Part shown: piece by piece, positions 5,168 to 60,040 of the stretch
Position numbering within the stretch: the stretch's first letter is position 1
Layout of the letters: each line of letters opens with the position of its first letter
Position numbers and translations under genes: made by a program
Source of the DNA: Eubacteriales bacterium
GTDB lineage: Bacteria; Bacillota; Clostridia; Oscillospirales; CAG-382
DNA: 64,000 bases
NCBI GenBank assembly: GCA_045595165.1
Contig: JAZNZY010000001.1
Coordinates: forward strand, 467-64,466
Direction: 5' to 3'
The notes under the pieces: model-generated
What the model saw: only the letters and a program-made list of their open reading frames with translations
Databases searched by the model: none
What the model was told of the DNA's origin: nothing

Positions 5168-5208
5168 AAAAGCACCCCAAGAAAACTGCGTTTTCTCGGG
5201 GTGCTTTT
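5168..5208. terminator. Bidirectional terminator-like hairpin related to the C module
   Basis: AAAAGCACCCC-AAGAAAAC-TGC-GTTTTCTC-GGGGTGCTTTT after SBP stop. Confidence 0.7.
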
Positions 5209-5215
5209 GCATACA

Positions 5216-5244
5216 TTGACAAAATACCGTATATGTGTTAAAAT
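5216..5244 (+). promoter_or_regulatory. sigmaA promoter
   Basis: TTGACA-17 bp-TAAAAT with extended TG. Confidence 0.75.
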
Positions 5245-5287
5245 GCCTCTTGCGTAAGTCGGAAAAACACGTATAAAGGATTTTGTT

Positions 5288-6064
5288 ATGAAAGAATTTT
5301 TCGGTTTCGGCGGGTATGAGCGTATACCCGAAGGGTATTTTTCCCGGCAGCATTTAACATTTGTTTCTTCTTTAATGGTAATTATGGTGCTTTGCGCCGT
5401 TATATTTGGCTTAAAAAACAAAAACAAAGACGAAAAGACCAAAAACCGCGTGCTTTTGTGGGCGGCAATTATTATCGATTCGGCAGAGCTTTTTAAGATA
5501 ATCATTTTGTGCTTTCGCTCTGCTGACCCTTGGGCGTGGCTTTACGATCTTCCATTGTTTTTGTGCAGTATTCAGCTTATTGCCATTCCCCTTGCGGCAC
5601 TTTCTTCGGGCAGATTAAAGCAAGCGGCTTTGGATTTTGTGTTTATCTTCGGGGTGCTGGGCGCGGTTATGGGCACCTACTGCGCAGGGCAGAACTACGC
5701 CGCGTATCCCGTTTTAAGCTTTGATAACGTGGTTTCCGGATTTACCCATTCAATATCCGGCTTTGCGGCGCTGTATATCGGCTTTTCCAAAATGATAAGT
5801 ATGAAAAAGAAAAACATTTGGATAACGTTTACCATTCTTCTGAGCTTTTGCGGAGCCGCCCTCCTTGCAAACAAGATTTTGGATTACAACTATATGTTCC
5901 TCCGCGCGGGGGACGGCACGCCTTACGATATAGTGTATAATCTGGTAAACGGAAACGCCGTTTTGTATCCCCTTTGCGTGGTAGGCTTGTTTTTGGTGTA
6001 TATAGTGGCGTTTTATTATGTGTATTATCTGATAGCGCATTTGGTTGCCAAGAAGAAAAAATAA
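5288..6064 (+). CDS. YwaF/TMEM164-like integral membrane protein
   Basis: Multiple TM segments; LPLFLCSI (cf. LPLHLC), NYMFL near C terminus. Confidence 0.7.
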   Translation: MKEFFGFGGYERIPEGYFSRQHLTFVSSLMVIMVLCAVIFGLKNKNKDEKTKNRVLLWAAIIIDSAELFKIIILCFRSADPWAWLYDLPLFLCSIQLIAIPLAALSSGRLKQAALDFVFIFGVLGAVMGTYCAGQNYAAYPVLSFDNVVSGFTHSISGFAALYIGFSKMISMKKKNIWITFTILLSFCGAALLANKILDYNYMFLRAGDGTPYDIVYNLVNGNAVLYPLCVVGLFLVYIVAFYYVYYLIAHLVAKKKK

Positions 6065-6080
6065 TCACCCCGACAATCAA

Positions 6081-6106
6081 AAACCTCCGAGAAATCGGAG
6101 GTTTTC
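6081..6106 (+). terminator. Intrinsic terminator
   Basis: AAAACCTCCGA-GAAA-TCGGAGGTTTT. Confidence 0.7.
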
Positions 6107-6185
6107 CTTTTAATATTGGAGCGGAAGGGGCAAGCCCCTTACCTGCGTTGTGGGAATTTGCTAAGCAGAACAATTCACATTTTTT

Positions 6186-6250
6186 GCGTTTTTGGGGTGA
6201 TTTTTTTCGGGGTCCCTGAAAACGCGAATAGCGTTTTTGGGGTGATTTTT
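6186..6250 (-). repeat. C module with partial duplication
   Basis: Reverse complement reads ATCACCCCAAAAACGC-TATTC-GCGTTTTCAGGGACCCCG followed by a second ATCACCCCAAAAACGC. Confidence 0.8.
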
Positions 6251-8799
6251 TATTTTACCGAGCGCCCCTTATTCTTTACAATTACTGCCAGGGAGGCGAC
6301 CAGTATCACGCCTACCACACCGCAGGCGATCCACATAACGGTATTATTTTTGCCGTTTTCATCATCGGAAGGCGCGCTTTCGGAAGACGAAGAATCGTTT
6401 TTGTTTTGCTCGTTTTTAATGCTTTCTTCTCTTAAGCTTTCTTCCTTTTTGCTCTCCTCGATACGGCTTTCTTCGGCTTTGCTGCTTTCCTCATAGGAGC
6501 TTTCAAACTCGCTTACGGCGCTGTCATCAATGCCCGTATCGGGAATATCCTCATCGCTTACGACGGTGCGCTGAGTGTTGCTTAAAATTCTTACGATATA
6601 TTCAAGATCGCTCTTTATCACCTTGTCTGCGGCGGAGGTGCCGAGAGATGCGATAATATCCTTCACCGTATTTACGAGAACGTCGTTTTCGGTAGTGGAA
6701 ACCGCGCCCTTGAAGGCTTCAAGCTTTGCTTTTAAGCTTTCGCAATCGGCTTTGGATTTACCGCCGAAGGGAAGAATGATATTTACTATTCTGTCAATAG
6801 CGTAATCCGCCGAGGCGGTAAGGGCTTTTTCTATATCAAGCGTGGGAGTGATGGCTCTGTTTCTGAAAGCACCGTTTTTCACAAGGAAATCCGAGGTGTT
6901 CTTGCCAAGATAGGTGGACGCTTCAAAGAACATAACGCCGTCCGCCCCTTTTTCGTTGGCGAGGATAACGTGAGTAGCCGCATCAAAGCCGCTGTAGGAA
7001 TCTGCGTATACGCCGATACCGGAAGCCAAGAACTTGCCGTTCATTTTTTCAACGTTTTTATCGGTTGCCTCAACGGAATCCCAGGTGTATGACATAGGCT
7101 TGAGCAGATCGATCCAGCCTTTTTTGATCCAAGTTCCGTAGTCCTGATACAAGCCGTTGCGGGCGCCGGAAGCATCGGGACCTACATCTGCGCAGAGGAG
7201 AACGTCTTCCCCGTATTCGTTGAACAGCGTGCGCATTTTGCCTACGAAGCCGGTGATAATATCGCATCGGTACTGTACCCAGTTATCCCAATAGGAAGCG
7301 GAAGTATCGTACTTGGGAGTAACTCCGTATTTTGCCTTGAATCCGCCTACGGTAAGGGCATCGTAGCCGTAATCGTCGTTGATACCGTCCTGATAACGAA
7401 TATAATCCAATTCAAAGCCGTCGATATCGTAATTTTCAAGTATGTATTGATAAGTGCCCAGCAGGAACTCCTGCACCTCGGGATGGGCGGGGTTGAGGAA
7501 GCAGAAATCGTCGTCGTCTTTAACGCAGGTGTCCTTGCCGCTGTTATTTATGTTGCGCCAGGTGGGATTTTTATACCACACGCTTCTTTCAAGGTTGGAG
7601 CAAGTGGTGTGGGAGGAATAGAATATAGGCATCCATACGTGCAGTTCCATTCCTCTTGCGTGGCATTCCTCAATGTAAGCGCCAAGCACGTCAAAACCGT
7701 TAAATTTGGGATTTTGCTCGAAATCGCTTCCCTCGGGCGCGGGGAAAATGAGGGTGGAATCGTAAAGAGTTTCTATACAAAGAGTGTTTATGCCGTTATC
7801 ATAAAGCCGCTGGACGTAATCCGCAACCTCTTGCTTGGTCTTCTGGATAGGTCTTATCCACACGCCGCGGTACTCTACGGTGCGGCTTTCTGCGCAGGCG
7901 GAAAGTCCCGCATTGAGAAGTGCGTTTATATCCGCAATACAGTTTGTCATCTCGGTTTCATCCGTAAGGGTTTCGTACTTCGCACGGAGAGAAACCATTT
8001 GGTTTATGCAGGAATCTAAAAACTCGTAATCGTAATATGCAAAATTCTTTTTACCCGAATCCCGCTTGTCCCTTAACTGCTGAATGCCGGTATCAATAAG
8101 GGAAATATACGCAAAAACATCCATTTCCAGAGTAACTGTCTTTGCGGCGGCATCGTAGGAAGCTTTCATACCCACGCGGGCGTTTTTGGTAAGCCAGTCC
8201 GAATTGACTCCGTGGCCGGAGATTATAAATCCGCCCTTAGGAACTGTATTGTTGTTGCCGCCTACTGCGGTAACGCGTCCGTCCGTGCCGACGATAACCT
8301 CATAGCCCCATTCGTTGGTGCCGGTCTTGCCGCTTTGGTTATATATTACAAGGGCTCCTTCGCCGCGGGTGCCGTTTACACTCGTGATCTCACGCTGTAT
8401 GGTATAATACATTCCGCCGAATGCGGTGGGCTCGGTGGAAAGAAGTATGGTGGAAGAACGGGAATCGTAATAGCAGTACATGCCAACCTTGCAGTTTTGC
8501 TTTATCCAATCGCCCATACTGCTGTGACCGGAAAGGACGAATCCGCCTTCGGGAATGGTTTCGTTACCCATGGTGGTTACACGGATTATCTTGTTATCCG
8601 CATCGACAACCGCTTCCGCACCCCATTGGTTGGTAGCGGTGGACGCACCGAACGCAGGGGTGTATACGATAAGCTCGTCTTCTCCTCTGCCGCGGTTTTC
8701 TGCGTGTACGGTCTGAGTGATCTCCTCAGCGGAAACAGCAAAGGAAAGACAGCCCATACACATAACCAGCGCAAGTAAAATAACAATTATTTTCTTCAT
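6250..8799 (-). CDS. Secreted, C-terminally anchored GHL10/DUF187-type glycoside hydrolase-like protein
   Basis: Signal peptide; EYRGVWIRP, FLNPAHPEVQ, DIDGFELDYIRY; two N-terminal repeats (TNxWG...IPxGGFxxSGH); Ser/Glu-rich linker and C-terminal TM helix. Confidence 0.8.
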   Translation of the reverse strand: MKKIIVILLALVMCMGCLSFAVSAEEITQTVHAENRGRGEDELIVYTPAFGASTATNQWGAEAVVDADNKIIRVTTMGNETIPEGGFVLSGHSSMGDWIKQNCKVGMYCYYDSRSSTILLSTEPTAFGGMYYTIQREITSVNGTRGEGALVIYNQSGKTGTNEWGYEVIVGTDGRVTAVGGNNNTVPKGGFIISGHGVNSDWLTKNARVGMKASYDAAAKTVTLEMDVFAYISLIDTGIQQLRDKRDSGKKNFAYYDYEFLDSCINQMVSLRAKYETLTDETEMTNCIADINALLNAGLSACAESRTVEYRGVWIRPIQKTKQEVADYVQRLYDNGINTLCIETLYDSTLIFPAPEGSDFEQNPKFNGFDVLGAYIEECHARGMELHVWMPIFYSSHTTCSNLERSVWYKNPTWRNINNSGKDTCVKDDDDFCFLNPAHPEVQEFLLGTYQYILENYDIDGFELDYIRYQDGINDDYGYDALTVGGFKAKYGVTPKYDTSASYWDNWVQYRCDIITGFVGKMRTLFNEYGEDVLLCADVGPDASGARNGLYQDYGTWIKKGWIDLLKPMSYTWDSVEATDKNVEKMNGKFLASGIGVYADSYSGFDAATHVILANEKGADGVMFFEASTYLGKNTSDFLVKNGAFRNRAITPTLDIEKALTASADYAIDRIVNIILPFGGKSKADCESLKAKLEAFKGAVSTTENDVLVNTVKDIIASLGTSAADKVIKSDLEYIVRILSNTQRTVVSDEDIPDTGIDDSAVSEFESSYEESSKAEESRIEESKKEESLREESIKNEQNKNDSSSSESAPSDDENGKNNTVMWIACGVVGVILVASLAVIVKNKGRSVK

Positions 8800-8800
8800 A

Positions 8801-9886: not shown

Positions 9887-10055
9887 AGTGTATCTCCGCA
9901 GTTTTCATATTTTTACATTTTATTATATAATATAAAAGCGAAAAAAGCAACACAAAAGTTATCGGCAAAAAACCTTTAAGACAAAGCGTTTTTATGTTGA
10001 TATTTTGCCGATACCGTGGTATAATACCCTTGTAAAAAAAGACACGGAGGGCTGT

Positions 10056-10943
10056 ATGGAATATTTATCTGCCGCAAAAATAGCGGAAAAATGGGGAGTT
10101 TCGCCCCGAAGCGTGCGGAATTACTGTGCTTTGGGCAGAATTGAGGGGGCAAAGCTTATCGGCAAGATATGGTACCTGCCCGAAAACGCCCAAAAGCCCG
10201 AAAGGTCCAACAAGAAAAAGCGTTCCCTTGCCCTGCTTGATATATTGAGAGAGCAAAAATCGGCGCACTTCAAGGGCGGCATCTACCACAAAATACAAAT
10301 AGACCTTACCTACAATTCCAACCGCATGGAAGGCAGCCGCCTTACCCACGATCAGACCAGATATATTTTTGAAACAAACACCATAGGATTTGAAAACGGG
10401 GCGGTTAACGTGGATGATATTATCGAAACCGCCAACCACTTCCGCTGTATCGATACGGTGATCGACCGCGGGGGAGAAAAGCTTACCGAAGGCTTTATAA
10501 AAGAGCTTCACGCCATCCTTAAGGCGGGAACCGCTGACAGCCGCAAGGATTGGTTTGCGGTGGGCGAATACAAAAAGCTTCCCAACGAGGTGGGCGGTAA
10601 TGACACGGCGTTGCCCGAAGAGGTAAAGAAAAAAATGCGTTCCCTCCTCTCCGCTTATAACGCCGATCCCCGCAAAAGCTTTGAAGATATAGTGGCGTTT
10701 CACGTTGAATTTGAGCGCATACACCCTTTTCAGGACGGAAACGGCAGAGTGGGACGACTTATTCTGTTTAAGGAATGTCTGAAGCACGGCATTGTACCGT
10801 TTATTATCGAAGACGATCTGAAGCTGTTCTATTACCGCGGCTTAAAGGAATGGGACAGAGAAAAAGGTTTTCTTTTGGACACCTGCCTTACCGCCCAAGA
10901 CAGATTCAAAAAACATCTGGATTATTTCAGAATCGAATATTAA
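10056..10943 (+). CDS. Fic-domain protein with N-terminal HTH
   Basis: HPFQDGNGRVGR Fic motif; SNRMEG putative inhibitory motif; AEKWGVSPRSVRNYC HTH; GGAGG SD before ATG 10056. Confidence 0.9.
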   Translation: MEYLSAAKIAEKWGVSPRSVRNYCALGRIEGAKLIGKIWYLPENAQKPERSNKKKRSLALLDILREQKSAHFKGGIYHKIQIDLTYNSNRMEGSRLTHDQTRYIFETNTIGFENGAVNVDDIIETANHFRCIDTVIDRGGEKLTEGFIKELHAILKAGTADSRKDWFAVGEYKKLPNEVGGNDTALPEEVKKKMRSLLSAYNADPRKSFEDIVAFHVEFERIHPFQDGNGRVGRLILFKECLKHGIVPFIIEDDLKLFYYRGLKEWDREKGFLLDTCLTAQDRFKKHLDYFRIEY

Positions 10944-10946
10944 TCA

Positions 10947-11002
10947 CCCCGAGAAAAATCACCCCAAGAAGCCTTTCGGCTTCTCGGGGACCCCGAGAAA
11001 AA
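10947..11002 (+). repeat. C module flanked by a 12-bp direct repeat
   Basis: CCCCGAGAAAAA-TCACCCCAAGAAGCC-TTTC-GGCTTCTCGGGGA-CCCCGAGAAAAA. Confidence 0.8.
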
Positions 11003-11035
11003 ACGGCGGTGGGACCGAAAAAGTCCCACCGCCGT
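11003..11035. terminator. Hairpin between convergent genes
   Basis: ACGGCGGTGGGAC-CGAAAAA-GTCCCACCGCCGT. Confidence 0.7.
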
Positions 11036-11041
11036 GGTGTT

Positions 11042-23970: not shown

Positions 23971-24132
23971 AAAAACCGCCCGGACAACACATACTTCCTA
24001 TTAATTTTACTACACAAACCCTTTTAAAGCAATACAAAAAAAGCAAAAGCGTATGATTTTCTCGTATCATTGACAAACCGCGGGTTTTATTGTAATATAA
24101 AATATGTAAGAAAACGCAAGGAGAAATATAAA

Positions 24133-25698
24133 ATGAAGATAAAAAAGCTTATTTCAGCTTTGCTGGTATCAGCGTTTATATGCGGAATCGTTCCCGCTGT
24201 GGAAGCGGACGCGGCAACCGTAACCTGGAACGCCAATAAGGTGAACGTGAATTCTTATCAATCCGAGGATGCCATACTCTTTACCGCGGATTTCGGCAAG
24301 GATACCATTCCCTTCGGCGCTTACAGCGATTATTCCTGGTGGCGTGTTATCGTGTGCGATTACGATTTTAACGCGGGCGTGTACAAGGTTATAAGCATAA
24401 ACAACACCACGGGAAGCGGTATGTCCAAATGCGCCGTTATTCCCAAAAACGGTTTTGTTATTGCAGACTGCTATTCTTCCTCCTTTGACGGGCTGGTGAA
24501 CGTGCATATCGGGGACGAAGCGTATCTGTATATGAACGGAAAAACCGCCAAGGTAACCTTCGGCGGAAAGGGAAGCGGTACTCCCCACACCCCCGAGGAA
24601 AAGGGATTTAAAATAAGCTCAAATCTTAATCATATGGGTATAACCGCCGCAACAAAGGACGGATTTACCTTAAAGATAGATAACTACGATAAATCCGTGG
24701 GATATTACCTGGTTATAAACGATGCTTCCGTTTGTGATGACGGAAAGGTGATCCAATCTACCAAAAAGCTTACATCCGATACCTACGAAATTCCCGCAAG
24801 CGTGTTTAAAAAGTCCGATATGCTCACCGTTTCTCTGTGGGCAAAGAAGGGGGACGAATATTCATCCGTTATCCGCACCAAGATGGTAGTGTTCAGCGAT
24901 ACGGCGCTGGCAAGCCAGCTTACCGAAAAGACGGTGGTTGCCTTCGGCGACAGCCTTACCGCCTTCACGGGCTGGGTAAAGGGTATGCTTACCGTGATCG
25001 GAACCGACGTTATCAATTCCGGTGTGGGGGGCGACACATCCCTGATGGGCAAAAACCGCTTTAAAAGGGACGTACTGGATAAAAACCCCGATATATGCAT
25101 AATAAACTTCGGTATGAACGACCAGGCGGAGGTGGTTGCCACGGGCGAGCCCAACTACCCCCTGGAATCCTACAAGGCAAACATCAAATATTTTATAGAA
25201 GAACTGCAAAAGATAGGCTGCGAGGTAATTCTGGTAACACCTCATAATCCCCACAAGGCAGAAAATTACTATTCACCCGGTCAGTACGGCTTGGATTACA
25301 CGGGTAAGCATCTGGACGCTTTCCGTCAGGCGGTAAGAGATATTGCGGCGGAATACGGCTGTAAGCTGGTGGATATCGCAAAGTTAAGCGAAAACGAGGA
25401 TATGTCCAAGTTTACTATGCTGTATGACGGACTTCATTGCAGCGAGTACGGTCACAGCAAGTATCTGGAATGGATATCTGAGGCTCTTTTAGAGGATGCG
25501 CTTACTGCAGGCGATATGAATTCCGACGGCAAGGTGGACAACACGGATATAGATTCCCTTAAAGCCGCCCTGCTCGCTCCCACGGAGGAGGATATTTCCC
25601 CTATAGACTTTAACAGAAACGGCAGAGTGGACGCAAACGATTACCTTTACCTTAAACGCCATCTTGAAGGCGACGGTGAAATGCGATGGAAAAAGTAA
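24133..25698 (+). CDS. Secreted SGNH/GDSL hydrolase with C-terminal type I dockerin
   Basis: Signal peptide; FGDSLT, NSGVGGDTS, FGMND, DGLH; dockerin duplicate GDMNSDGKVDNTD...DFNRNGRVDANDYLYLKRHL. Confidence 0.85.
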   Translation: MKIKKLISALLVSAFICGIVPAVEADAATVTWNANKVNVNSYQSEDAILFTADFGKDTIPFGAYSDYSWWRVIVCDYDFNAGVYKVISINNTTGSGMSKCAVIPKNGFVIADCYSSSFDGLVNVHIGDEAYLYMNGKTAKVTFGGKGSGTPHTPEEKGFKISSNLNHMGITAATKDGFTLKIDNYDKSVGYYLVINDASVCDDGKVIQSTKKLTSDTYEIPASVFKKSDMLTVSLWAKKGDEYSSVIRTKMVVFSDTALASQLTEKTVVAFGDSLTAFTGWVKGMLTVIGTDVINSGVGGDTSLMGKNRFKRDVLDKNPDICIINFGMNDQAEVVATGEPNYPLESYKANIKYFIEELQKIGCEVILVTPHNPHKAENYYSPGQYGLDYTGKHLDAFRQAVRDIAAEYGCKLVDIAKLSENEDMSKFTMLYDGLHCSEYGHSKYLEWISEALLEDALTAGDMNSDGKVDNTDIDSLKAALLAPTEEDISPIDFNRNGRVDANDYLYLKRHLEGDGEMRWKK

Positions 25699-26411
25699 GC
25701 ACCCCAAAAACGCAGGGCGTTTTCGGGGACCCCGCGAGTAAACCCGCCGCGGCGGCTGCAAAACCCGATCACTCGGGGCACAGAGAGCGTATCCGCGCCC
25801 GTGTTTACGGCGGCGAGCTTCCCTGCGGAACGGACGATGAGCTGTTGGAGGTTTTGCTGTTTTACGCTATTCCCCGAGGGGACACCCGCCCTATGGCGGA
25901 GGAGCTGATAAACCGTTTCGGCTCTCTGCGGGGTGTGGCAAACGCAACAAAATCCCAGCTTATGTCGGTAAAGGGAATCGGCGAAAAAACGGCGATACTT
26001 ATACAGACCGCCTGCCTGATGGCAAGAAAAACTCCCGTGCCCGAGGAAGCGGTGTATCTTAACACCTATGAAGAAAAGCGCGATTTCTTCTGCAATCTTT
26101 TGTCCTCGCTTCCCCACGAGGAGGTGTGGGCGGCATCCCTTTCGGAAAAGGGACAGCTGCTGGATATAACCCGTCTTTCCCGCGGGACGAGGGCGGGAGC
26201 CAACTTTTCCCACCGCACACTTTTAAACGCGGTGCTTTCCTGCGGGGCGGCGGCGGTAATTCTTGCCCACAACCACCCCGATAGATCCGCCCGCCCTTCT
26301 GCCGACGATATTCTGACCACCCGCGCGGTTTCGGATCTCCTTTCCAAAGTCGCCTGCAGGCTGGAGGAACACATCGTAGTCTGCGGAGATAGAATAATAA
26401 CTGTAAGATAA
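25686..26411 (+). CDS. radC: RadC family (JAB domain) protein
   Basis: HSGHRERIRAR, ELLEVLLFYAIPRGDT, LAHNHP...PSADD; start position uncertain. Confidence 0.88.
   Translation: MEKVSTPKTQGVFGDPASKPAAAAAKPDHSGHRERIRARVYGGELPCGTDDELLEVLLFYAIPRGDTRPMAEELINRFGSLRGVANATKSQLMSVKGIGEKTAILIQTACLMARKTPVPEEAVYLNTYEEKRDFFCNLLSSLPHEEVWAASLSEKGQLLDITRLSRGTRAGANFSHRTLLNAVLSCGAAAVILAHNHPDRSARPSADDILTTRAVSDLLSKVACRLEEHIVVCGDRIITVR
25699..25735 (+). repeat. C module inside the predicted radC 5' coding region
   Basis: GCACCCCAAAAACGC-AGG-GCGTTTTCGGGGACCCCGC. Confidence 0.85.
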
Positions 26412-29483: not shown

Positions 29484-29566
29484 GTTTTTTTGGGGTCCCC
29501 GCAAAAGCGTTTTTCGTGATACGCCGCGTCTGTTGTTACGTAATCAAAAAACCTTTTGTGGGGGAA
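29484..29566 (-). repeat. C module with expanded loop
   Basis: Reverse complement reads CCCCACAAAAG...CTTTTGCGGGGACCCC. Confidence 0.65.
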
Positions 29567-29899: not shown

Positions 29900-29955
29900 C
29901 TTAGAGATAATGAAGAAGTCTGCACACAGATAGCGGCGAAAAAATAAAAACTGAT

Positions 29956-30232
29956 GGACACGAAGCATTTGGATGCAGAAGGAACTTTTACGAGCGGGAT
30001 ATGGCACCACAAAAATGCGTGGATTTTTGGGGACCCCGTCGGGAGCTGTAGTCGACTACAGCAAGCGAAGTAAAAGTTTCTACAAAAACGCAAATTAAAC
30101 AAATTTAAAGAAATCCGACAGGATTTCTACCTAAACCATTACAGCGGACAGCCGAGGACGTCTGTCCCTACGGTTTTCGAAACATTTATGTGCATTTTGC
30201 GTTTTTGGGTCTGCGCCGAATGAGCGTGTCCC
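29956..30232 (+). repeat. L element copy 3 with nested C module (30004-30039)
   Basis: GGACACG..CATTTGG...CCGAATG..CGTGTCC; 45-bp extra segment flanked by CGGGA direct repeats. Confidence 0.9.
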
Positions 30233-30247: not shown

Positions 30248-31864
30248 ATGTCTAAAATCAAAACACCCGTAGTTACTATAGTTATGGACGGCGTAGGCCT
30301 TTGTCCCAGAACCGAGGGCAACGCTGTTGCCGCCGCAAGCACACCTACATTGGATATGCTTATGGCGAATTACCCCACCTTTTCTCTTAAGGCTCACGGA
30401 ACGGCGGTAGGTCTTCCCTCCGATGACGATATGGGCAACAGCGAGGTTGGCCACAACGCACTGGGCGCAGGTCAGGTATTTGCTCAGGGCGCAAAGCTGG
30501 TTTCCTCCGCTATTGAGAGCGAAAAGCTGTTTAACAGCGAAAGCTGGAAAAAGGTTGTTGCCAACGTAGGCGACACCGGTTCTGTACATTTTATCGGCTT
30601 GTTTTCCGACGGTAACGTGCATTCCCACATCGACCACCTGAAGGCTATGATAGTTAGAGCCAAGGCGGACGGCGTTAAGAAGGTTCGTATACACATACTG
30701 CTTGACGGCCGCGACGTTGGCGAAACGTCCGCGCTTGAATACGTTGATCCCTTTGAAGCTTGGCTTAAAGACCTTTGCGGCGAAGGCTTCGATGCACGCA
30801 TTGCATCCGGCGGCGGAAGAATGGTTATTACCATGGACAGATACGAAGCAAACTGGTCTATGGTTGAAAAGGGCTGGCACACCCACGTGCTGGGCGAAGG
30901 AAGATATTTTGCATCCGCCCACGAGGCTGTTGTTACCTACCGCGAGGAAACCGGCAAGATCGACCAGGATCTTCCTCCCTTCGTTATTGCCGAGGAAAAT
31001 AAGCCTGTGGGAACTATCGAGGACGGGGACAGCGTAGTATTCTTTAACTTCCGCGGCGACAGAGCTATTGAAATTTCCAAGGCATTTGACGATAAGGATT
31101 TTGATAAATTCGACCGTGTGCGCGTGCCCAACGTAGTTTACGCAGGTATGCTGGAGTATGACGGCGACGCTCACGTTCCCTCGATGTATCTGGTTTCTCC
31201 TCCCGAAATTTCCAACACCATGGGTGAATACCTTGCTTCTCTGGGCGTTAACCAGTACGCGCTGAGCGAAACCCAGAAATACGGCCACGTTACCTATTTC
31301 TGGAACGGAAACAGAAGCGGAAAGTTTAACGAAGAGCTGGAAACCTACGTTGAGGTTCCCTCCGATGTGGTTCCCTTTGAGCAGCGCCCCTGGATGAAGT
31401 GCGCAGAGATCACCGATCTGCTGATCGAAGCTATCGAGAGCGGAAAATACGGTTATCTCCGTGTAAACTTCGCCGACGGCGATATGGTTGGTCACACCGG
31501 CTCCTTTGCCGCTACCAAGATATCTATGGAAGCCCTGGACCTTTGCCTTGCACGTATTCTCAAGGCAGTTGACAAGGCGGGCGCGGTGGCTGTTATTACC
31601 GCAGACCACGGCAACGCCGACGAAATGTACGAATACAACAAGAAAAAGGGCGCAGTTTCTCTTAACGAGGACGGCACTCCCAAGGCAAAGACAAGCCATA
31701 CTCTTAACCCCGTTCCCTGCATTATCTACGATAACACCGGCAGAAACGACTATGAATGTGTAGAAGGTCAGTACGGCCTTGCAAACGTAGCCGCCACGGT
31801 TGTTACGTTGCTGGGCTTTGAGCCTAAAGATATGTGGGAAAGCTCGATGATAAAGATAAAATAA
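30248..31864 (+). CDS. gpmI: 2,3-bisphosphoglycerate-independent phosphoglycerate mutase
   Basis: MDGVG, MGNSEVGH, FSDGNVHSH, NFRGDRA, ETQKYGHVT, DMVGHTG, TADHGNA. Confidence 0.97.
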   Translation: MSKIKTPVVTIVMDGVGLCPRTEGNAVAAASTPTLDMLMANYPTFSLKAHGTAVGLPSDDDMGNSEVGHNALGAGQVFAQGAKLVSSAIESEKLFNSESWKKVVANVGDTGSVHFIGLFSDGNVHSHIDHLKAMIVRAKADGVKKVRIHILLDGRDVGETSALEYVDPFEAWLKDLCGEGFDARIASGGGRMVITMDRYEANWSMVEKGWHTHVLGEGRYFASAHEAVVTYREETGKIDQDLPPFVIAEENKPVGTIEDGDSVVFFNFRGDRAIEISKAFDDKDFDKFDRVRVPNVVYAGMLEYDGDAHVPSMYLVSPPEISNTMGEYLASLGVNQYALSETQKYGHVTYFWNGNRSGKFNEELETYVEVPSDVVPFEQRPWMKCAEITDLLIEAIESGKYGYLRVNFADGDMVGHTGSFAATKISMEALDLCLARILKAVDKAGAVAVITADHGNADEMYEYNKKKGAVSLNEDGTPKAKTSHTLNPVPCIIYDNTGRNDYECVEGQYGLANVAATVVTLLGFEPKDMWESSMIKIK

Positions 31865-32010
31865 CGATGAACGATAAACGATGAACGATGAACGAACCAC
31901 CCCGCAAAACCGCAGGTTTTGTAGGGACCCCGGAATGGAAACCTTTTTTCGCGTCTTTACGCGAAAAAAGCTACCGAAGTTCATAGTTCATAGTTCCCAG
32001 TTCATCGTTT
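31863..32010. repeat. H element with nested C module (31898-31933)
   Basis: ACGATGA arm, CACCCCGCAAAACC-GCA-GGTTTTGTAGGGACCCCGG, CTTTTTTCGCGT..ACGCGAAAAAAG, TCATAGT arm. Confidence 0.9.
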
Positions 32011-41035: not shown

Positions 41036-41103
41036 AAAGAATCCTCCTTAATGTTTTGTTAATAAATTATATAATAAACAAGATGATTTGTCAATAAAAC
41101 TTG

Positions 41104-41267
41104 AACGAGGAACTGGGAACTAGAAACGAGAAACTATGGTTGATTTTTGTTCACAGAACAAAAATCTTCCAAAATTCCTCATTTAGCATCGCAAAGCGAT
41201 GCGTCGCATTCCCGGGGTTCCCCGAAAACGCTATGCGTTTTTGGGGTGGGTTCCTCATTCCTCATTT
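41104..41267. repeat. H element with two cores and nested C module (41211-41250)
   Basis: GATTTTTGTTC-ACA-GAACAAAAATC, GCATCGC-AAA-GCGATGC, C module inside the right arm. Confidence 0.9.
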
Positions 41268-41329
41268 CTATTATAAACTTTGATACATATTTTTTATTTG
41301 CAAAATTTAAACGAAATTTATAACATACC

Positions 41330-41358
41330 TTGACAAAACCGTGAATATATGCTAAAAT
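41330..41358 (+). promoter_or_regulatory. sigmaA promoter
   Basis: TTGACA-17 bp-TAAAAT with extended TG. Confidence 0.75.
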
Positions 41359-41415
41359 GCGCTTGAACGGTAAATTGCCGTTTAAAATGATTTTTAAAAC
41401 GGAGGTAAACAACAT

Positions 41416-42608: not shown

Positions 42609-42611
42609 ATA

Positions 42612-42777
42612 AATGAGAAATGAGGAATGCGACGCGATGCAAAGCATCGCTAAATGAGGAATTTCGGTAGCTTTTTTGCGCCGAAGCGCAAAAAAGGTTT
42701 CCATCCCGGGGTTCCCCGAAAACGCTATGCGTTTTTGGGGTGGGTCATTTCTCATTCATCATTCCTCATTCCTCATT
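42612..42777. repeat. H element with two cores and nested C module (42705-42744)
   Basis: GCGATGC-AAA-GCATCGC, CTTTTTTGCGC-CGAA-GCGCAAAAAAG, C module identical to 41211. Confidence 0.9.
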
Positions 42778-42792
42778 AACAACAGGTGTATT

Positions 42793-44271: not shown

Positions 44272-44372
44272 AACTATGAACGAGGAACTATGAACTATGA
44301 ACTATGGTTGATTTTTGCCCAAAAGGCAAAAATCTTCCGAAGTTTCTCGTTTCTCGTTCATCGTTCATCGTT
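44272..44372. repeat. H element
   Basis: ACTATGA arm, GATTTTTGCC-CAAAA-GGCAAAAATC, TCTCGTT/TCATCGT arm. Confidence 0.88.
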
Positions 44373-44393
44373 AATTTTACGGAGTAAAATCTT

Positions 44394-45011: not shown

Positions 45012-45156
45012 GGAATGAGGAATGAGGAACGAGTAACCCACCCCAAAAACGCATAGCGTTTTCGGGGAACCCCGGGAACGAGGAATTTCGGAAGATTTTT
45101 GTTCGCAGAACAAAAATCAACCATCATTTCTCATTTATCATTTATCATTCCTCATT
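45000..45156. repeat. H element with nested C module (45036-45076)
   Basis: (AATGAGG)4 arm encodes the trmK end NEE*; GATTTTTGTTC-GCA-GAACAAAAATC. Confidence 0.9.
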
Positions 45157-55221: not shown

Positions 55222-55863
55222 TTACTTTCGATTTTTTTCTTTGCCTTCCAGACATATTACTATGCGTCTTTCCGCATCCTGACCGATAGAATATGTAGCC
55301 ACGCCGGCGATCTTCTGGATCTCGGTATGGATAACACGTCTTTCATAGGGATTCATAGGCTCAAGAGCAAAGCTTCTCTTAAACTTGAGTACCTTTTCTG
55401 CCTGCTTCTGCGCAAGGCGGCGGAGGGTTTCCTCACGCTTTTCGCGGTAGCCCTCAACATCCAGCGTTATGCGGTAAAACCCATCGTAAACGCGGTTTGC
55501 GGCGAGGGAAGCGAGATACTGCAGGGAATCCAAAACTTCGCCGTGGCGTCCGATAAGCGAGCCCAAGCCCTTTCCGGATACTACGAGGGTAGCTTCGTCT
55601 TTCTTTTCTTCCTTGACGCTTACCTGGGCGGTAAGGCCCATATCACCCAAAACCTTTTCAACAAATTCAACTGCTTTGCTTGCGGGGGTTATTTGTATAT
55701 ATACTCTTACCTTTGCGTTGGAAGCGCCGATACCAAGGAAGCCCTTGCTGGGCTGCTCCAGCACCTCAAATTCAACGGAGGTAAGATCTGTGCCAAGCTC
55801 CTGCGCGCCCAATTCAACGGCGGCTTCGATAGTCTTGGCAGATACAATAGCTTCTCTTACCAT
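55222..55863 (-). CDS. jag: Jag/EloR (KhpB) RNA-binding protein
   Basis: Jag_N (AKTIEAAV...SKGFLGIG), KH (LIGRHGEVLDSLQYL), R3H (PMNPYERRVIH). Confidence 0.95.
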   Translation of the reverse strand: MVREAIVSAKTIEAAVELGAQELGTDLTSVEFEVLEQPSKGFLGIGASNAKVRVYIQITPASKAVEFVEKVLGDMGLTAQVSVKEEKKDEATLVVSGKGLGSLIGRHGEVLDSLQYLASLAANRVYDGFYRITLDVEGYREKREETLRRLAQKQAEKVLKFKRSFALEPMNPYERRVIHTEIQKIAGVATYSIGQDAERRIVICLEGKEKNRK

Positions 55864-55866
55864 TGC

Positions 55867-57276
55867 TTACTCCTTATCTGTCTTTTCGGTCTTTTCGTCA
55901 AGACCGGTAGAACGTTTTGCGGGAAGCTCGCTTTCGTCAACGGACAGCATCTTTATTCTTCTGGTGCCGGCAGCGGGCTTTTCTTCTTCGCCCTCCGCAG
56001 CATCGGAAACCTTTAATCCGTCATAGGAATGATCATCCTCGTCTACTTCGATAACGATCTTCTTTTTCTTCTTTGTCTTGGTTACTTCTTTAATAGCCGC
56101 CTTTATCTCTTCCTCGGTATAAGTGGGGATAGGATAAACCTTGGCGAAGATAAGCTGTTTACCCATAGAGAATACGCTTCTCCATACCCAGTAAACGCCC
56201 AGTGCCGCCTGGAAGCTGAATGCAAACCAAAGGGACATAAGGGGCATACCCCATTCCATCATCTTGCCGCCGGGCATCTTGACGGGGTTTCCGTCCGCAT
56301 CCAGATTCTGAGGCTGAAGCTTTCTGGAAAGCCAGGCAGACATAAAGGATGTGAGGAATACCAAAAGGGGAATGATAACCAGCCAGTTTATATTCTTTAT
56401 ACTGGGAGTATCCAGCAGGGATCTTCCGAACATAGAGTAATTGGGAAGTTCCTGAATAGCGTTATAATATACGTCGGTTTCTTCGTAATCGAAAGCGGTC
56501 TTGAGAATATCATCGGTAGAAGCGGAAAGAAATTCGCCGCAGAGTCCTTTTTCCTCAAGAGGTTCGCGGACGTACATATCGAAATACTCCGTCATTGCGA
56601 CCACGCGGTATTCGTTCTTTACGCTCTTTTTTGCGTCTTCGTGGATATCCTCGTCATCGCTGAAATAGAATGTATATTTATCCGCTTCCTCATCGTAATA
56701 GTACTTATCGCACATAGTCTTTTGGTACTCTGTGAGACCTGCGGAGAAATTCTTGATAAATTCTATCTTTTCCTGCTGTTCTTCGGAAGGCTCTTCGATC
56801 TTTAAAAGCTCATCCAATTCGTAATTTACCTGCTCCTTTACGGTTTCGCACAGCTCGATTGAATTTTTATACATTACGTTGAGCTGATCGTCATCCATAA
56901 AAAGGGTGTACTGCAGGGGCTGGCGTACGATACTGTAAAGTATCATAATAATGGGAAGCTGAATAAGGAGGGGAAGACAGCCGCCAAACATATTGTAGCC
57001 GTTCTTCTGATACATTTCCTGTATCTCCATATTCATTTGCTGCTGAGATTCTTTATCCGTTCTGTTCTTGTACTTGCGCTTTATGGCGATCTCCTTGGGA
57101 CGGAGAGTTGCCTGCTTAACGGAAGATTTCTGCTGCTTGATGGAAAGAGGCAAAAGCACAACTTCCATAATGAGAGAAAAAAGGATTATGGCTACCCAGT
57201 AATAATTCTGGCCTACCCAAAGACAACCCTTCATTACATACCCGAACGGTATGTAAAAAATATCCATAATGTTCAA
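55867..57276 (-). CDS. yidC: Membrane protein insertase YidC with a large insertion
   Basis: LPLSIKQQKS, GCLPLLIQLPI, ALGVYW; canonical position; 469 aa. Confidence 0.92.
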   Translation of the reverse strand: MNIMDIFYIPFGYVMKGCLWVGQNYYWVAIILFSLIMEVVLLPLSIKQQKSSVKQATLRPKEIAIKRKYKNRTDKESQQQMNMEIQEMYQKNGYNMFGGCLPLLIQLPIIMILYSIVRQPLQYTLFMDDDQLNVMYKNSIELCETVKEQVNYELDELLKIEEPSEEQQEKIEFIKNFSAGLTEYQKTMCDKYYYDEEADKYTFYFSDDEDIHEDAKKSVKNEYRVVAMTEYFDMYVREPLEEKGLCGEFLSASTDDILKTAFDYEETDVYYNAIQELPNYSMFGRSLLDTPSIKNINWLVIIPLLVFLTSFMSAWLSRKLQPQNLDADGNPVKMPGGKMMEWGMPLMSLWFAFSFQAALGVYWVWRSVFSMGKQLIFAKVYPIPTYTEEEIKAAIKEVTKTKKKKKIVIEVDEDDHSYDGLKVSDAAEGEEEKPAAGTRRIKMLSVDESELPAKRSTGLDEKTEKTDKE

Positions 57277-57309
57277 TTTTGTTTTCTCTTTTCTTTTTTA
57301 ATTTTTTTG

Positions 57310-57443
57310 TTTTTTGCATTTTTGCAAAAAACATACCGAAACGTTGCGAAGCAACATATCACGTGCGTGAAACGCACATATCACGAACACGGAGTGTTCA
57401 TATCACGTTGCGGTACGCAACATATCACGCATCCGAAGGATGC
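57310..57443 (-). repeat. G array copy 2 (inverted relative to copy 1)
   Basis: ATATCAC x4 between GTTGC-GAA-GCAAC, GTGCGT-GAA-ACGCAC, GAACAC-GGA-GTGTTC, GTTGCG-GTA-CGCAAC, GCATCC-GAA-GGATGC. Confidence 0.9.
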
Positions 57444-57668
57444 TCAACGCTTCCTTTTCGGCACCGGATCGTACCCGCCCTTGCAAAGGGGCTGGCAGCG
57501 CAAAAGCCGCCAAAGGCTTAAAAAAATGCCGATAATAACGCCCCATTCCTCGATCGCCTCGATAGCGTATTGAGAGCAGGTGGGATAAAAACGGCAGTTT
57601 GCCCCAAGAGAGGGTGATACGTGTTTTTGATAAAAGCGTATTGGTGCGGTAAAAATTTTTTTAAACAT
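57444..57668 (-). CDS. yidD: Membrane protein insertion efficiency factor YidD
   Basis: [31 protein letters not shown]. Confidence 0.95.
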
Positions 57669-58035
57669 AGTCTTTTTCCGTATCCTCGCAAAGGAGTGCC
57701 GCCCCGGTCAATATATCTTTAAGCTGGGAATACACAACGGCGCTTGTGGAATTCATACAGCCTTGTCGGGCGACTGCCACTATAATATATCCTTCCTTCA
57801 CTTGCGGATAAAGTCGGCGGAACGCCTCTCTTATGATCCGCTTTGCACGGTTTCTTTCTACCGCTTTTCCCCGTTTTTTTGAAACGGTTATGCCAAGCAT
57901 CGTCTTGGCGGAAGCACGGCGGTTTTTTAAAATATATACCGCCAGCGCCTGACGGGTATGGCATTTTCCTTTTGCATACGCCAACCCGAAAAGGTGATTT
58001 TGCTTGAGGGAAATTACTCTTTTTGTTTCTTGCAA
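57661..58035 (-). CDS. rnpA: Ribonuclease P protein component
   Basis: [23 protein letters not shown]; TTG start after AAAGAGGTG. Confidence 0.93.
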
Positions 58036-58087
58036 AATAACCACCTCTTTAAAAAAATTTAAGGGCAAAAAGCAAATGAATAAGGAA

Positions 58088-58110
58088 AAAAACCGACATT
58101 GTCGGTTTTT
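58088..58110 (-). terminator. Hairpin between rpmH and rnpA
   Basis: AAAAACCGAC-ATT-GTCGGTTTTT with U run on the minus strand. Confidence 0.6.
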
Positions 58111-58180
58111 TACCGAAACTATTCATTTTTCACTTTTACTTTTTACTTTCACTTATTAATTTTAAAACTGCGTTTTTAAA

Positions 58181-58315
58181 TTAATAAGTGAGTCTTGCTC
58201 TGCCCTTAGCGCGTCTTCTCTTAAGAACCTTTCTGCCGTTAGCGGTAGCCATTCTCTTTCTGAAGCCGTGTTCTTTCTGTCTGTGGATCTTTTTAGGCTG
58301 ATATGTTCTGAGCAT
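58181..58315 (-). CDS. rpmH: 50S ribosomal protein L34
   Basis: [39 protein letters not shown]; GGAGG SD. Confidence 0.98.
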
Positions 58316-58393
58316 TCGGAATGCACCTCCTGATAAATATTCAAAGTAAATTATTTTTGCGCCGTTTTTCCTGCGTAAAAGCAGGCAAAGGAT

Positions 58394-58423
58394 ATTATAA
58401 CCACAAAAGTTAGAGTTTGTCAA
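58394..58423 (-). promoter_or_regulatory. sigmaA promoter for rpmH
   Basis: TTGACA-18 bp-TATAAT. Confidence 0.7.
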
Positions 58424-58437
58424 GAGTTTTTTAGAAA

Positions 58438-58583
58438 AATGATGAATGAGAAATGATGAATGAGGAATTTCGGTACGTTTTTTGCATTACGCAAAAAACT
58501 TTTTTTGATTATTTAATTATTTAAAATTCGCGTGATGCGAATTTTTACCATAATTTCTCATTTCTCATTCCGAATTCCTCATT
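58438..58583. repeat. H element in the rpmH-dnaA spacer
   Basis: Heptamer arm, TTTTTTGC..GCAAAAAA, AAAATTCGC-GTGAT-GCGAATTTT, inverted arm. Confidence 0.8.
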
Positions 58584-58591
58584 AAAAAAAC

Positions 58592-58620
58592 TTGCTTTTT
58601 TTACACATAGATGTTATAAT
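58592..58620 (+). promoter_or_regulatory. dnaA promoter with a DnaA box in the spacer
   Basis: TTGCTT-17 bp-TATAAT (extended TG); TTTTACACA at 58599-58607. Confidence 0.75.
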
Positions 58621-58661
58621 ATAATATATATAACTATAACTATATATTATAGAGGTGAAAA

Positions 58662-59999
58662 ATGGATTACAACAACCCGGAAAACAGAGAACGGATATAT
58701 GCCGCCGTTCTTGAGGAAATGAAAACCAAATGTTCCGACGCCTCCTTCAACTGGCTTTTTAAAAACACTATTTTAACATATATGTCCCCTACCCAGGCAG
58801 ATCTTCTTACGCCCGACGTGGTGGCGGCAAACACTATTAATAACAGATATCTTACAGCTCTGGAAGAGGCGTTTGCAAAATACACCTTTTCCAACGTGCG
58901 CGTTACGGTAAGCAGTAAGACCGCCGCTCCGAGAGAGCAAAAAAAGGAAGAAACAGAGGACGATAACAAATACACCGCGTACAAGCTTCGTTATAACCCT
59001 AATTTCACCTTTGATAATTTCGTTATCGGATCTTCAAATCAGGTGGCGGCGAAGGCATCCTTTGCCATAGCGGAGCATCCCGCCGAGCTGTATAACCCTC
59101 TCTTTATATACGGCCCTCCGGGACTGGGAAAGACACATTTGCTCTTTGCCATAGTAAACCACCTGCGGGACAGAAATCCACATGCTGACATACTGTATAA
59201 GACGGGTGAGGAATTCACACAGGAAATGGTGGATTCGCTGGTGCAGAAATCCAACGTGGCGTTCCGTGAAAAGTACCGTAATCTGGACGTTTTGCTGATC
59301 GACGATATTCAGTTTATCGAAGGTAAGGACAAAACGCAGGAGGAATTTTTCCACACTATAGACACACTTTTTCAACAGCAAAAGCAGGTGATAATCACAT
59401 CCGACCGTCCGCCCAAGGAAATTAACCTTGAGGACAGGCTTAAAAGCCGTTGCGAAATGGGCTTGATTGCGGACATAAAACCGCCGGATGCAGAGCTGAG
59501 AACCGCTATTTTCAAGAAAAAGAGCGTGGATATGGGTGTAGATATACCCGATAACGTTTTGGGCTTTTTGGCGGAAAATATTAAAACGAATATCCGTCAG
59601 ATAGAAGGCGCGATAAAAAAATTAAAGGCTCATTCCTTTATCGAGGACAGAGAGATCACTTTGGATATGGCTGTTTCGGTATTGAGCGAATATTTGAAAA
59701 CCGCCGAAACGCAGGATAACAAAGTGCAAAATATATTCGATTATATCTGCAAAAAATACTCTGTCAAAAAAGAAGTGCTTACCTCGGGTAAGCGAAACGC
59801 GGATATAGTTTACGCCAGAAACCTTTGTATTTTCGCTCTGCGCTCCTTAACGGATATGTCCCTTAAAAAGATAGGCGCAATGTTCGGCAAGGACCACACC
59901 ACAATTATAAATTCCATTTCCAACGTGGAAAACAAAATGAAAAACGAGCCTGCATACGAGCGCGAGGTAAATCTGATGTTAAAGGAATTGGGAGAATAG
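58662..59999 (+). CDS. dnaA: Chromosomal replication initiator DnaA
   Basis: FTFDNFVIGSSN, YNPLFIYGPPGLGKTHL, IDDIQF, DHTT. Confidence 0.98.
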   Translation: MDYNNPENRERIYAAVLEEMKTKCSDASFNWLFKNTILTYMSPTQADLLTPDVVAANTINNRYLTALEEAFAKYTFSNVRVTVSSKTAAPREQKKEETEDDNKYTAYKLRYNPNFTFDNFVIGSSNQVAAKASFAIAEHPAELYNPLFIYGPPGLGKTHLLFAIVNHLRDRNPHADILYKTGEEFTQEMVDSLVQKSNVAFREKYRNLDVLLIDDIQFIEGKDKTQEEFFHTIDTLFQQQKQVIITSDRPPKEINLEDRLKSRCEMGLIADIKPPDAELRTAIFKKKSVDMGVDIPDNVLGFLAENIKTNIRQIEGAIKKLKAHSFIEDREITLDMAVSVLSEYLKTAETQDNKVQNIFDYICKKYSVKKEVLTSGKRNADIVYARNLCIFALRSLTDMSLKKIGAMFGKDHTTIINSISNVENKMKNEPAYEREVNLMLKELGE

Positions 60000-60003
60000 T
60001 GTA

Positions 60004-60040
60004 TCACCCCACAAAACTTCGTTTTGCGGGGACCCCGAAA
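60004..60040 (+). repeat. C module directly after the dnaA stop
   Basis: ATCACCCCACAAAAC-TTC-GTTTTGCGGGGACCCCG. Confidence 0.85.

Follow-up and report, generated by a model that had tools for sequence, protein, structure and literature searches.

A hairpin repeat with REP-like features turns over rapidly and lies in fixed polarity beside other hairpins in a Clostridia genome

How gene-less repeats of ~40 bp move is a long-standing question, for which repetitive extragenic palindromes (REPs) have a candidate enzyme and the CGTC-tagged and ‘untagged’ families have none. It is raised here by a stretch of 64,000 nucleotides from a gut Eubacteriales bacterium of the class Clostridia (GenBank assembly GCA_045595165.1; contig C1:467-64466, hereafter ‘the window’), in which a small hairpin, here called C, recurs between genes and inside larger repeats termed H and L elements. 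A preliminary description had counted C at about 12 sites and taken it for a very small, recently active, non-autonomous element. We followed C through the host assembly (2.05 Mb, 39 contigs, ~46% G+C; labelled G000), nine congeners, a sister genus, further genomes of the family and order, and an evenly drawn phylum sample of 400 genomes from 278 genera. C proves to be a genuine, abundant, structured repeat: units come and go quickly, arrays change, hairpins are lost and stems replaced, and C inserts with fixed polarity beside other hairpins.

A structural scan of the host genome (pattern CCCC-hairpin-GGGG-A(A)-CCCC) finds 97 full copies in 2.05 Mb, the commonest repeat there; all 25 of the most frequent genome-wide 16-mers belong to C, with up to 42 copies each. 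The unit is non-coding, 41-45 bp long, with the consensus aaAaAATCA-CCCC-[stem-loop-stem]-GGGG-ACCCCGA.AAaAA. It consists of (A)ATCA-CCCC, a position that is mostly left unpaired (A.C), a co-varying, A/T-rich stem of 7 bp, a loop of 3-4 nt and GGGG-A(A)-CCCC-GA, and in double-stranded form its tag reads GGGGACCCC. Covariation of the stems had been claimed from four quoted pairs; all four are present, and across 98 distinct variants from the host genome and one congener, pairing holds in 87.6% of cells at stem positions 2-8, versus 69.3 +/- 1.2% (maximum 73%) when partners are shuffled, with positions 3, 6 and 7 alternating among GC, AT, TA and CG. Position 1, beside the CCCC/GGGG clamp, is unpaired in 65% of these variants and A.C in 42/98; on the opposite strand this A.C becomes a G.U or G.T pair. 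Same-strand neighbours lie 40-45 nt apart (mode 41) and thus form head-to-tail arrays, and there are no inverted pairs among the listed copies. The flanks are ATCA/ACCCCGA (GGGGT/TGAT on the other strand), with neither a GTAG nor a CGTC tag, and GTAG-REPs form a separate set of 76 copies in the host genome. Rfam yielded no match at the gathering threshold in the window and none that was significant at permissive E-values around 10960 or the Terriglobus locus described below. A reading as DNA-uptake sequence or restriction-modification site (GGWCC) was set aside because the copies are too sparse and their stems variable.

Gene context, taken from codon-model gene calls made in this analysis, places 44 copies between convergent genes and 3 between divergent genes; between tandem genes, 24 copies are antisense and 14 sense. 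An independent closed hairpin (<=-8 kcal/mol, foot within 12 nt of the copy) adjoins 69% of copies on the ACCCC side versus 7% on the ATCA side, and the median energy of the neighbouring hairpin is -13.8 kcal/mol on the former and -0.4 kcal/mol on the latter; this closed-hairpin test replaced a first measure of terminator adjacency that was confounded by pairing of A tracts with T tracts. Most of these host hairpins are terminators at gene ends, complete with T tract; the others belong to an H, L or REP repeat. The GGGGT side of C always faces the host hairpin, new copies lying a few bases 3′ of it and beginning right after the terminator T tract (..TTTTGTTGTC followed directly by GGGGT..), and 43 of the 48 copies with a gene reading towards them have a stable hairpin and T tract between stop codon and C. 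Copies embedded in H, L or REP repeats follow the same polarity, the host hairpin then being part of the other repeat, and C is found nested in H arms, L elements, the loop of a GTAG-REP and even an open reading frame (ORF). On the strand reading TC-GGGGT-CCCC..GGGG-TGAT (the T orientation), 47/96 copies satisfy a simple terminator rule requiring a T tail, versus 0/96 on the other strand, and the RNA fold is stronger (-24.6 versus -19.8 kcal/mol); with G.U or G.T at position 1 and the T-rich tail found in this genus, the T-orientation hairpin resembles an intrinsic terminator. Replication-strand bias, judged by local GC skew, was not seen (21 versus 17, p = 0.63) in a comparison of low power on fragmented contigs.

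The C pattern occurs 34-144 times in eight of the nine congeners and 18-26 times in the sister genus; the other 29 family and order genomes hold 0-2 copies each, except one with 5, and the other genomes of the phylum sample all hold 0-4. Among unrelated Bacillota, G102, G184 and G142 have 2-4 well-formed copies each (for example, ACCCCACAAAAAGCTTCGCTTTTTGCGGGGACCCCGA), so the family also exists at low copy number. The preliminary description had named C at all the same sites in relatives as the outcome that would speak against it, and this is not what we see. In G006, the closest congener (coding flanks ~94% identical; 1.11 Mb, ~58% of G006, compared), 9/28 orthologous loci that are filled in the host genome also hold C, and 9/26 loci filled in G006 hold C in the host genome. 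Clean pairs of filled and empty alleles are the following:

C21:134664 of the host: 42 bp, GTAACCCA..AACCCCG, inside an H element
C34:28971 of the host: 42 bp, TCGGGGTCCCC..GGGGTGATTTA, after a terminator T tract
C19:10112 of G006: 41 bp
Other loci: 44-45 bp

In the 41-42-bp pairs, the cleanest, the position is ambiguous by <=1 nt. Clean indels of 41-45 bp bear out the description of C as very small; C is also non-coding and nested in other repeats. Arrays differ between genomes by whole units. Two exact variants, AAGAAGCC-TTGC-GGCTTCTC (17 copies) and AAGAAGTC-TGC-GACTTCTT (10 copies), have multiplied in the host genome and are absent (0 copies) from the compared part of G006; their flanks beyond 30 nt are 27% identical, as expected at random, and they are independent, lineage-specific insertions. 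Loss of the hairpin leaves the footprint ATCACCCCGACAA, which lacks precisely what a full unit has from one ACCCC repeat to the other; nine such footprints lie between genes. Finally, conspecific or near-identical assemblies, reached via exact-protein look-ups that yielded strain-level contigs (L200 and L201 among them), differ at two window sites, 60005 and 6065. The earlier interpretation is partly supported: fast turnover, bursts and strain differences speak for it, and identity among copies within H elements, on which the preliminary description had drawn, is no evidence of recency (see below).

The window contains six exact matches to CACCCC-N15-30-GGGGA(A)CCCCG, the strict motif (10960+, 25700+, 41213-, 42707-, 45039+ and 60005+), which turns up in 0/100 shuffles, and a relaxed scan (<=2 mismatches in the fixed parts, stem required) brings in 6209-, 30007+ and 31900+. 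The tally of nine full or near-full copies, one extension-less hairpin, two hairpin-less footprints and one split copy, that is 12-13 sites, agrees with the earlier count, whose coordinates were 2-3 nt off. The sites are:

5168..5208 (+): extension-less C-type hairpin AAAAGCA-CCCC-AAGAAAAC-TGC-GTTTTCTC-GGGG-TGCTTTT
6065..6076 (+): hairpin-less footprint TCACCCCGACAA, abutting the stop codon of 5288-6064 and preceding a terminator
6209..6242 (-): near-full C with one mismatch (AGGG for GGGG) and a AAAAACGC-type stem, relaxed scan
10944..10958 (+): hairpin-less unit TCACCCCGAGAAAAA, in tandem with the next full unit
10960..10995 (+): full C, stem AAGAAGCC/TTTC, strict motif
25700..25734 (+): full C, stem AAAAACGC/AGG, 3 nt past the stop of 24070-25698, strict motif
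29492..29564 (-): putative split C, GGGGTCCCC-GCAAAAG ... CTTTTGT-GGGGG, with a ~45-nt insert in the loop, tentatively read by eye
30005..30038 (+; scan start 30007): degenerate C lying within an L element (CACCAC.. in place of CACCCC), relaxed scan
31900..31931 (+): near-full C, GCAAAACC/GCA/GGTTTTGT, AGGG for GGGG, after gene 30248-31864, relaxed scan
41213..41248 (-): H-type C, AACCCA-CCCC-AAAAACGC-ATA-GCGTTTTC-GGGG-AA-CCCC-GGG, strict motif
42707..42742 (-): H-type C with hairpin A of an H element on one side and its right arm on the other, strict motif
45039..45074 (+): H-type C bordering the left arm of an H element on its inner side, strict motif
60005..60037 (+): full C, stem ACAAAAC/TTC, 5 nt past the dnaA stop, strict motif

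The hairpin at 5168 is indeed as clean and terminator-like as had been noted (-27.8 kcal/mol, z -7.5) and is apparently the intrinsic terminator of gene 3609-5156. At the orthologous site, G006 has a full C that keeps the AAGAAAAC stem and follows a different terminator, a footprint without hairpin accompanies a terminator in G008, and ordinary terminators are all that G002 and G003 have; the site is unchanged in a near-identical strain contig. It is plausibly a C core turned terminator, as the preliminary description guessed. The footprint at 6065 has a counterpart in contig L201 (~99.5% identical), which ends in TAATCACCCCAAGAAGCCTTGCGGCTTCT, a full C of a burst variant, where the window reads TAATCACCCCGACAA; G006 has neither full C nor footprint there, its sequence being TGA followed by TCAAAAAG. 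Terminator-like patterns were also picked up at 6214-6242(+), in the copy at 6209..6242 and with the tail TGATTTTTTA, and at 10989-10962(-), with 12 pairs and the tail TGATTTTTCT; the latter belongs to the copy at 10960..10995, which sits between the stop of 10005-10943 and a bidirectional terminator at 11003-11035. The copy at 25700 is found in the host genome only, among five species, being missing in G006, G002, G008 and G003, and the orthologous site holds a GTAG-REP in G008 and G003. The copy at 60005 lies in the dnaA-dnaN spacer of the rnpA-rpmH-dnaA-dnaN-recF region (58662-60303). At this site a 97%-identical metagenome-assembled genome (MAG; L200) with an identical DnaA protein, and likewise G006, carry a GTAG-REP, and the following 250 nt are identical. 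In L200, a 15-nt tandem duplication of the dnaA 3′ end (TTGGGCGAATGATAC x2) lies beside the GTAG-REP. Cumulative GC skew does not turn at dnaA.

The whole segment 29492-29564 is missing at the orthologous site in G006, G008, G002 and G003. A comparable split copy lies at G000:C5 ~31790-31900, and the loops of both split hairpins appear to host another repeat of ~45-110 nt, with pieces of GTGATAT/GTGATAC type and a GTAG-REP; C would thus also be a target for other modules. At 30005, the orthologous L element of G008 is without C and differs in its variable stems, while other L elements with C (G000:C12:5124 and contig L004 of G007) carry it at the same internal position. Over 29950-30220, the ‘variable’ stems of the L element are wholly different from those of G008 (L187; ACGAGCGGGAG.. 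versus TAGGCGTGTGGA..) and the L framework is conserved, the same phenomenon as the stem swap of C at 41213. There the C of the window separates hairpin B of an H element from its right heptamer arm. In G006 the same position is likewise taken by C, with near-identical flanks and a different stem (GCAAAACC-GCA-GGTTTTGT versus GAAAACGC-TAT-GCGTTTTT in the window; 9/19 bases changed), and a ~95%-identical lineage (L196) has neither H nor C.

The three H-type copies (41213, 42707 and 45039), which the preliminary description had reported as identical, do agree over 41 nt (ACCCACCCC..AACCCCGGG). They occupy three different places in H elements, though each lies at the inner edge of a heptamer arm and is oriented with that arm. 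This identity does not date them, because a 33-mer that they contain is identical in G006, G002 and G003 as well, although the coding DNA of the four species differs by 6-18%. At 42707, H without C is found in G002, G003 and G004, and no H in G005 and G007; G006 has the same H with C, the whole block being inverted. This inversion of H+C at one intergenic site (window 42611-42775; L017:1405-1620 in G006) suggests a flip by recombination between the inverted heptamer arms, and the stem of hairpin B differs as well (GATGC/GCATC versus TCTTGC/GCAAGA). At 45039, the orthologous H of G002 and G003 carries an identical C, which G006, G008 and G004 lack, and the 49-bp indel relative to G006 comprises 42 bp plus one heptamer. 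Conversely, the H element at window 44290-44390 holds C in G006 alone.

Short direct repeats flanking C had been put forward as possible target duplications, namely CGGGA (29995/30040), GAACGAG and CCCCGAGAAAAA; they are present in the sequence and none stands as a target duplication. The repeat GGAACGAG at 45039 lies in the heptamer array, and G002 and G003 carry C there without an extra heptamer. The CCCCGAGAAAAA pair at 10947/10991 comes from a hairpin-less unit followed by a full unit, which explains the direct repeat. CGGGA, on both sides of C 30005..30038, fits a 5-nt duplication relative to the L consensus CGAGCGGGGAGCTGTAG, in this single case. Comparison of filled with empty alleles, which the preliminary description had proposed for defining target duplications, rejects them as a general feature (0-1 nt in the cleanest pairs), and C does not have the terminal inverted repeats with a fixed-length target duplication that mark miniature inverted-repeat transposable elements.

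The frame of C extends well beyond this genus. A collection scan with TCACCCC-N17-22-GGGGACCCCGA matched many Acidobacteriaceae and one Pullulanibacillus record, and whole-genome counts with CCCC-N15-24-GGGGACCCCG gave the following numbers of C-frame copies, with 0-4 for the reversed pattern in the same five distant carriers:

Terriglobus sp.: 113
Acidobacteriaceae MAG: 71
Granulicella: 67
Korobacteraceae MAG: 161
Pullulanibacillus pueri CGMCC 1.12777: 104

The Acidobacteriota here are soil bacteria and Pullulanibacillus pueri is a cultured relative of Bacillus. Bacillota and Acidobacteriota have in common the frame A-CCCC-A ... C-GGGG-A-CCCC-GA (~15 nt), the A.C position, an 8-nt linker and a 42-nt array period, while the stems are lineage-specific (AGCGAGC../..GCTCGCC, AACAAGCC../..GGCTTGTC, AAAAAGT-AAAGAAC-ACTTTTC). 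Neither Pullulanibacillus (TTGTAATC) nor Acidobacteriota (TGAGAATC) has a U-rich tail. In Terriglobus sp. (L206:290-350 and 1990-2050), a second small hairpin, TTCGAG..CTCGAA, precedes the C-type hairpin on its TCA side, an arrangement that differs from the host genome’s. A literature search found no description of this frame, and a search for the literal tag returned only unrelated eukaryotic papers.

What kind of element would behave in this way? The best reading ranks the C family alongside REPs, under a new class of tag. Beyond that, with confidence evenly balanced for and against, we suggest that C is the unit of a REP-like, non-coding, non-autonomous family of mobile hairpins moved by a trans-acting factor. 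Such a factor, specific for both sequence and structure, would recognise the folded single strand of C and cut or join at its GGGGT/ACCCC tags in a reaction resembling the ‘peel and paste’ of HUH enzymes (IS200/RAYT type, RAYT denoting REP-associated tyrosine transposase), and the resident RAYT-like enzyme described below would be a candidate partner. Copies, once landed, would probably serve as back-up terminators or be neutral. A frame kept across phyla with lineage-specific stems points to a conserved factor that recognises the folded strand, and the GGGGT..GGGGT arrangement with precise footprints is the expected trace of hairpin-guided single-strand cutting and joining.

Like the REPs and bacterial interspersed mosaic elements of Proteobacteria with their RAYTs, and like REPINs (PMC3116915, PMC5581495), C is a short, high-copy extragenic palindrome found mostly at gene 3′ ends, with a conserved tag beside the hairpin, no target duplication, arrays, lineage-specific expansion and a RAYT-like HUH gene in the host genome. 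It differs in that its tag is GGGGT/ACCCC on both sides of the stem rather than GTAG, in that it is single or head-to-tail (41-nt period) where REPINs are inverted doublets, in that the host RAYT-like gene is flanked and filled by GTAG-REPs rather than C, and in adjoining other hairpins with fixed polarity. Two REP tag classes have been published, with GTAG and with CGTC (Di Nocera et al. 2013, PMC3733652); like these superfamilies, C is a cross-phylum class with a short tag at the foot of a variable palindrome, and like the CGTC repeats it lacks an associated transposase gene, but its frame is longer, including the stem base and a fixed mismatch, and is not found in that survey (PMC3733652). 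IS200/IS605 ‘peel and paste’ elements and their gene-less derivatives resemble C in hairpin dependence and in the lack of target duplication, and the 3′ end of C (GGGGT) repeats the oligonucleotide 5′ of the insertion, which would account for the direct repeat as well as the precision of the footprint; unlike them, C has one hairpin, no cognate Y1 transposase identified, no replication-strand bias (21:17) and non-uniform insert ends. The GGGGT..GGGGT repeat, the nine precise footprints and one full/footprint strain pair fit insertion 3′ of a fixed oligonucleotide with precise excision, yet whole units have also been inserted where no GGGGT stood before. The small dispersed repeats (SDR) of filamentous cyanobacteria are reportedly <50 nt long, apparently mobile, nested in other repeats and without a known enzyme; they would thus be small, nested and enzyme-less like C, although sequences and hosts differ. 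Pneumococcal BOX, RUP and SPRITE and the Neisseria Correia elements are likewise modular intergenic repeats, some of which are terminators or affect neighbouring genes, but each is larger (100-150 bp or more) and bears terminal inverted repeats and, in Correia and RUP, target duplications, whereas C is one 30-nt hairpin without target duplication.

A Pfam Y1_Tnp profile search of the host genome returned no match above the cut-off, since the RAYT-like gene, at 22.3 bits, falls just short of the 23 required. Traced instead via a weak match in a congener, this gene is a single 198-aa ORF (G000:C21:134770-135363) that matches NCBIfam NF047646 ‘REP-associated tyrosine transposase’ (E = 2.9e-16, 59.7 bits, cut-off 80) and has E. 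coli TnpA-REP (4ER8) as its best PDB match. Several observations nevertheless weigh against the reading of C as an element moved by a trans-acting factor. Across 80 RAYT-like loci, at least two GTAG-REPs accompany the gene in 34 and C in 5; these GTAG-REPs are of the type GTAGGGACCGGCGTCC..GGTCC and often lie inside the ORF. A cognate repeat is expected to show as a most abundant RAYT-flanking 16-mer that is highly repeated genome-wide (Bertels et al. 2017, PMC5581495), and the flanks of the resident gene have no 16-mer with >10 copies and none that is an abundant C 16-mer, so by this measure C is not its cognate repeat. RAYT-like matches were not found in G003 (45 C copies) or G010 (18), and G008 (99 C copies) has only a paralogue of 38%. 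Of 12 RAYT loci taken from the distant carriers, a single one, L320 (G047), lies within 1.5 kb of a C-type copy. The inserts do not end uniformly (TC.., TTTC.. or TTGTTGTC.. at one end; ..TGATTTA or ..TAAT at the other) and microhomology is seen at some junctions, both untypical of a precise transposase. Within H elements, moreover, gain and loss of C may come from exchange (gene conversion) among H copies and not from C itself transposing. C has no enzyme linked to it. Judged by flanking repeats, we rejected the RAYT-like gene as the cognate enzyme of C, its partner repeat being the GTAG-REP at the 80 homologous loci and in the five distant carriers, where RAYT loci are again flanked by GTAG-type repeats. 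The IS200-like genes of G006 and G007 (L001-L003) were rejected as well, as they have end hairpins of their own and are unrelated to C. The resident RAYT-like ORF itself, which lies outside the window (also L085:1501-2094), carries two in-frame GTAG-REP hairpins, coding ..VGTGVPDRP.. and ..TPVPTGE...

An alternative interpretation is that C spreads without any enzyme: replication would stall at the hairpin, and the nascent T-rich 3′ end would switch to another locus where C follows a T tract, copy C and return, while slippage between ACCCC repeats deletes hairpins, short-patch conversion swaps stems and quasipalindrome correction keeps the arms complementary. Variable insert ends fit this, as do microhomology at some junctions (TTGTTG already present at the empty site of C34:28971, TCA at 6065, ~15 nt at C19:32576 of G006), the adjacency of C to hairpins and T tracts, the lack of both target duplication and replication-strand bias, and RAYT flanks without C; template switching is also a known source of perfect hairpins and a known means of keeping them perfect (PMC8794818). 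We consider enzyme-free spread rather unlikely, however, because a ~15-nt frame, an unpaired position and a 41-42-nt period are common to Bacillota and Acidobacteriota although the stems differ, and a purely mutational process would not conserve a frame in this way. Template switches between loci are rare, and 27 copies of two burst variants stand at unlinked sites in one lineage with 0 in the sister sample. We also think it unlikely that C is a true REP of the resident system, a single RAYT-like HUH enzyme mobilising C and GTAG-REPs alike. The gene is present and apparently intact, with HUH (MPNHIH) and Y..NP catalytic motifs invariant among its homologues, and RAYT-like matches are commoner in C-rich genomes (9/12 genomes with >=10 C copies versus 6/29 with <=5, counting the host and 40 relatives, 41 genomes in all). 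C abuts the 3′ end of the gene in G004 and lies 80 nt past its stop in the host genome; a 45-nt C-like hairpin forms an in-frame insert of 15 residues (KIHPANAKAFAGTPN) in the ORF of the host and G006, missing in the G004 and G012 homologues; and Pullulanibacillus and Acidobacteriota carriers also encode RAYT-family genes. Yet C has no GTAG tag, the repeats in and around this gene family are GTAG-REPs as counted above, the C next to the host gene is missing in G006, G003, G010 and G008 are rich in C without an orthologue, and C is never found as inverted REPIN doublets in the copies listed.

The notion that C is mainly a selected RNA or DNA signal (a back-up or bidirectional terminator, or a hairpin stabilising the 3′ untranslated region) accounts for the excess of convergent over divergent contexts, for the terminator rule and stronger fold of the T orientation, for the position-1 G.U favoured on that strand (42 versus 7) and for the copy at 5168, apparently the sole terminator of its gene. 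We nonetheless judge it very unlikely: the 43/48 copies behind an independent terminator would mostly be transcribed rarely, H- and L-type copies lie in promoter-side spacers, two thirds of sites differ between close species, identical units form tandem arrays, tails are not U-rich in the distant carriers, and no Rfam family matches. A bolder version of the factor-driven reading, which we hold to be improbable at present, would make C-type hairpins a third cross-phylum class of REP-like tags, with the core as a cassette excised and re-inserted between ACCCC/GGGGT tags by a hairpin-specific enzyme acting on single-stranded DNA, possibly a RAYT with dual specificity. Excision would leave ATCACCCCGACAA as a ‘docking site’ that a different core may then enter. 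If true, one mechanism would cover footprints, full/footprint polymorphism between strains and stem swaps at fixed sites.

To return to C itself, its anatomy is unusually informative: the frame is long and invariant, the mismatch is fixed, footprints are precise and insertion next to hairpins is polar; natural filled, empty and footprint alleles also exist between strains. With ~100 copies in cultured, non-pathogenic bacteria (Pullulanibacillus pueri CGMCC 1.12777, Terriglobus), the mechanism is directly testable. C-like elements also break MAG assemblies, remodel terminators and promoter-side spacers (here, the dnaA-dnaN spacer) and can insert in frame into genes. Other repeats behave similarly: at <=~95% identity, the same intergenic sites hold H, L, both or nothing (41036-41415, 42609-42790 and 44272-44393; L196, L017-L024), so that the whole repeat ecosystem, not C alone, turns over on that time scale.

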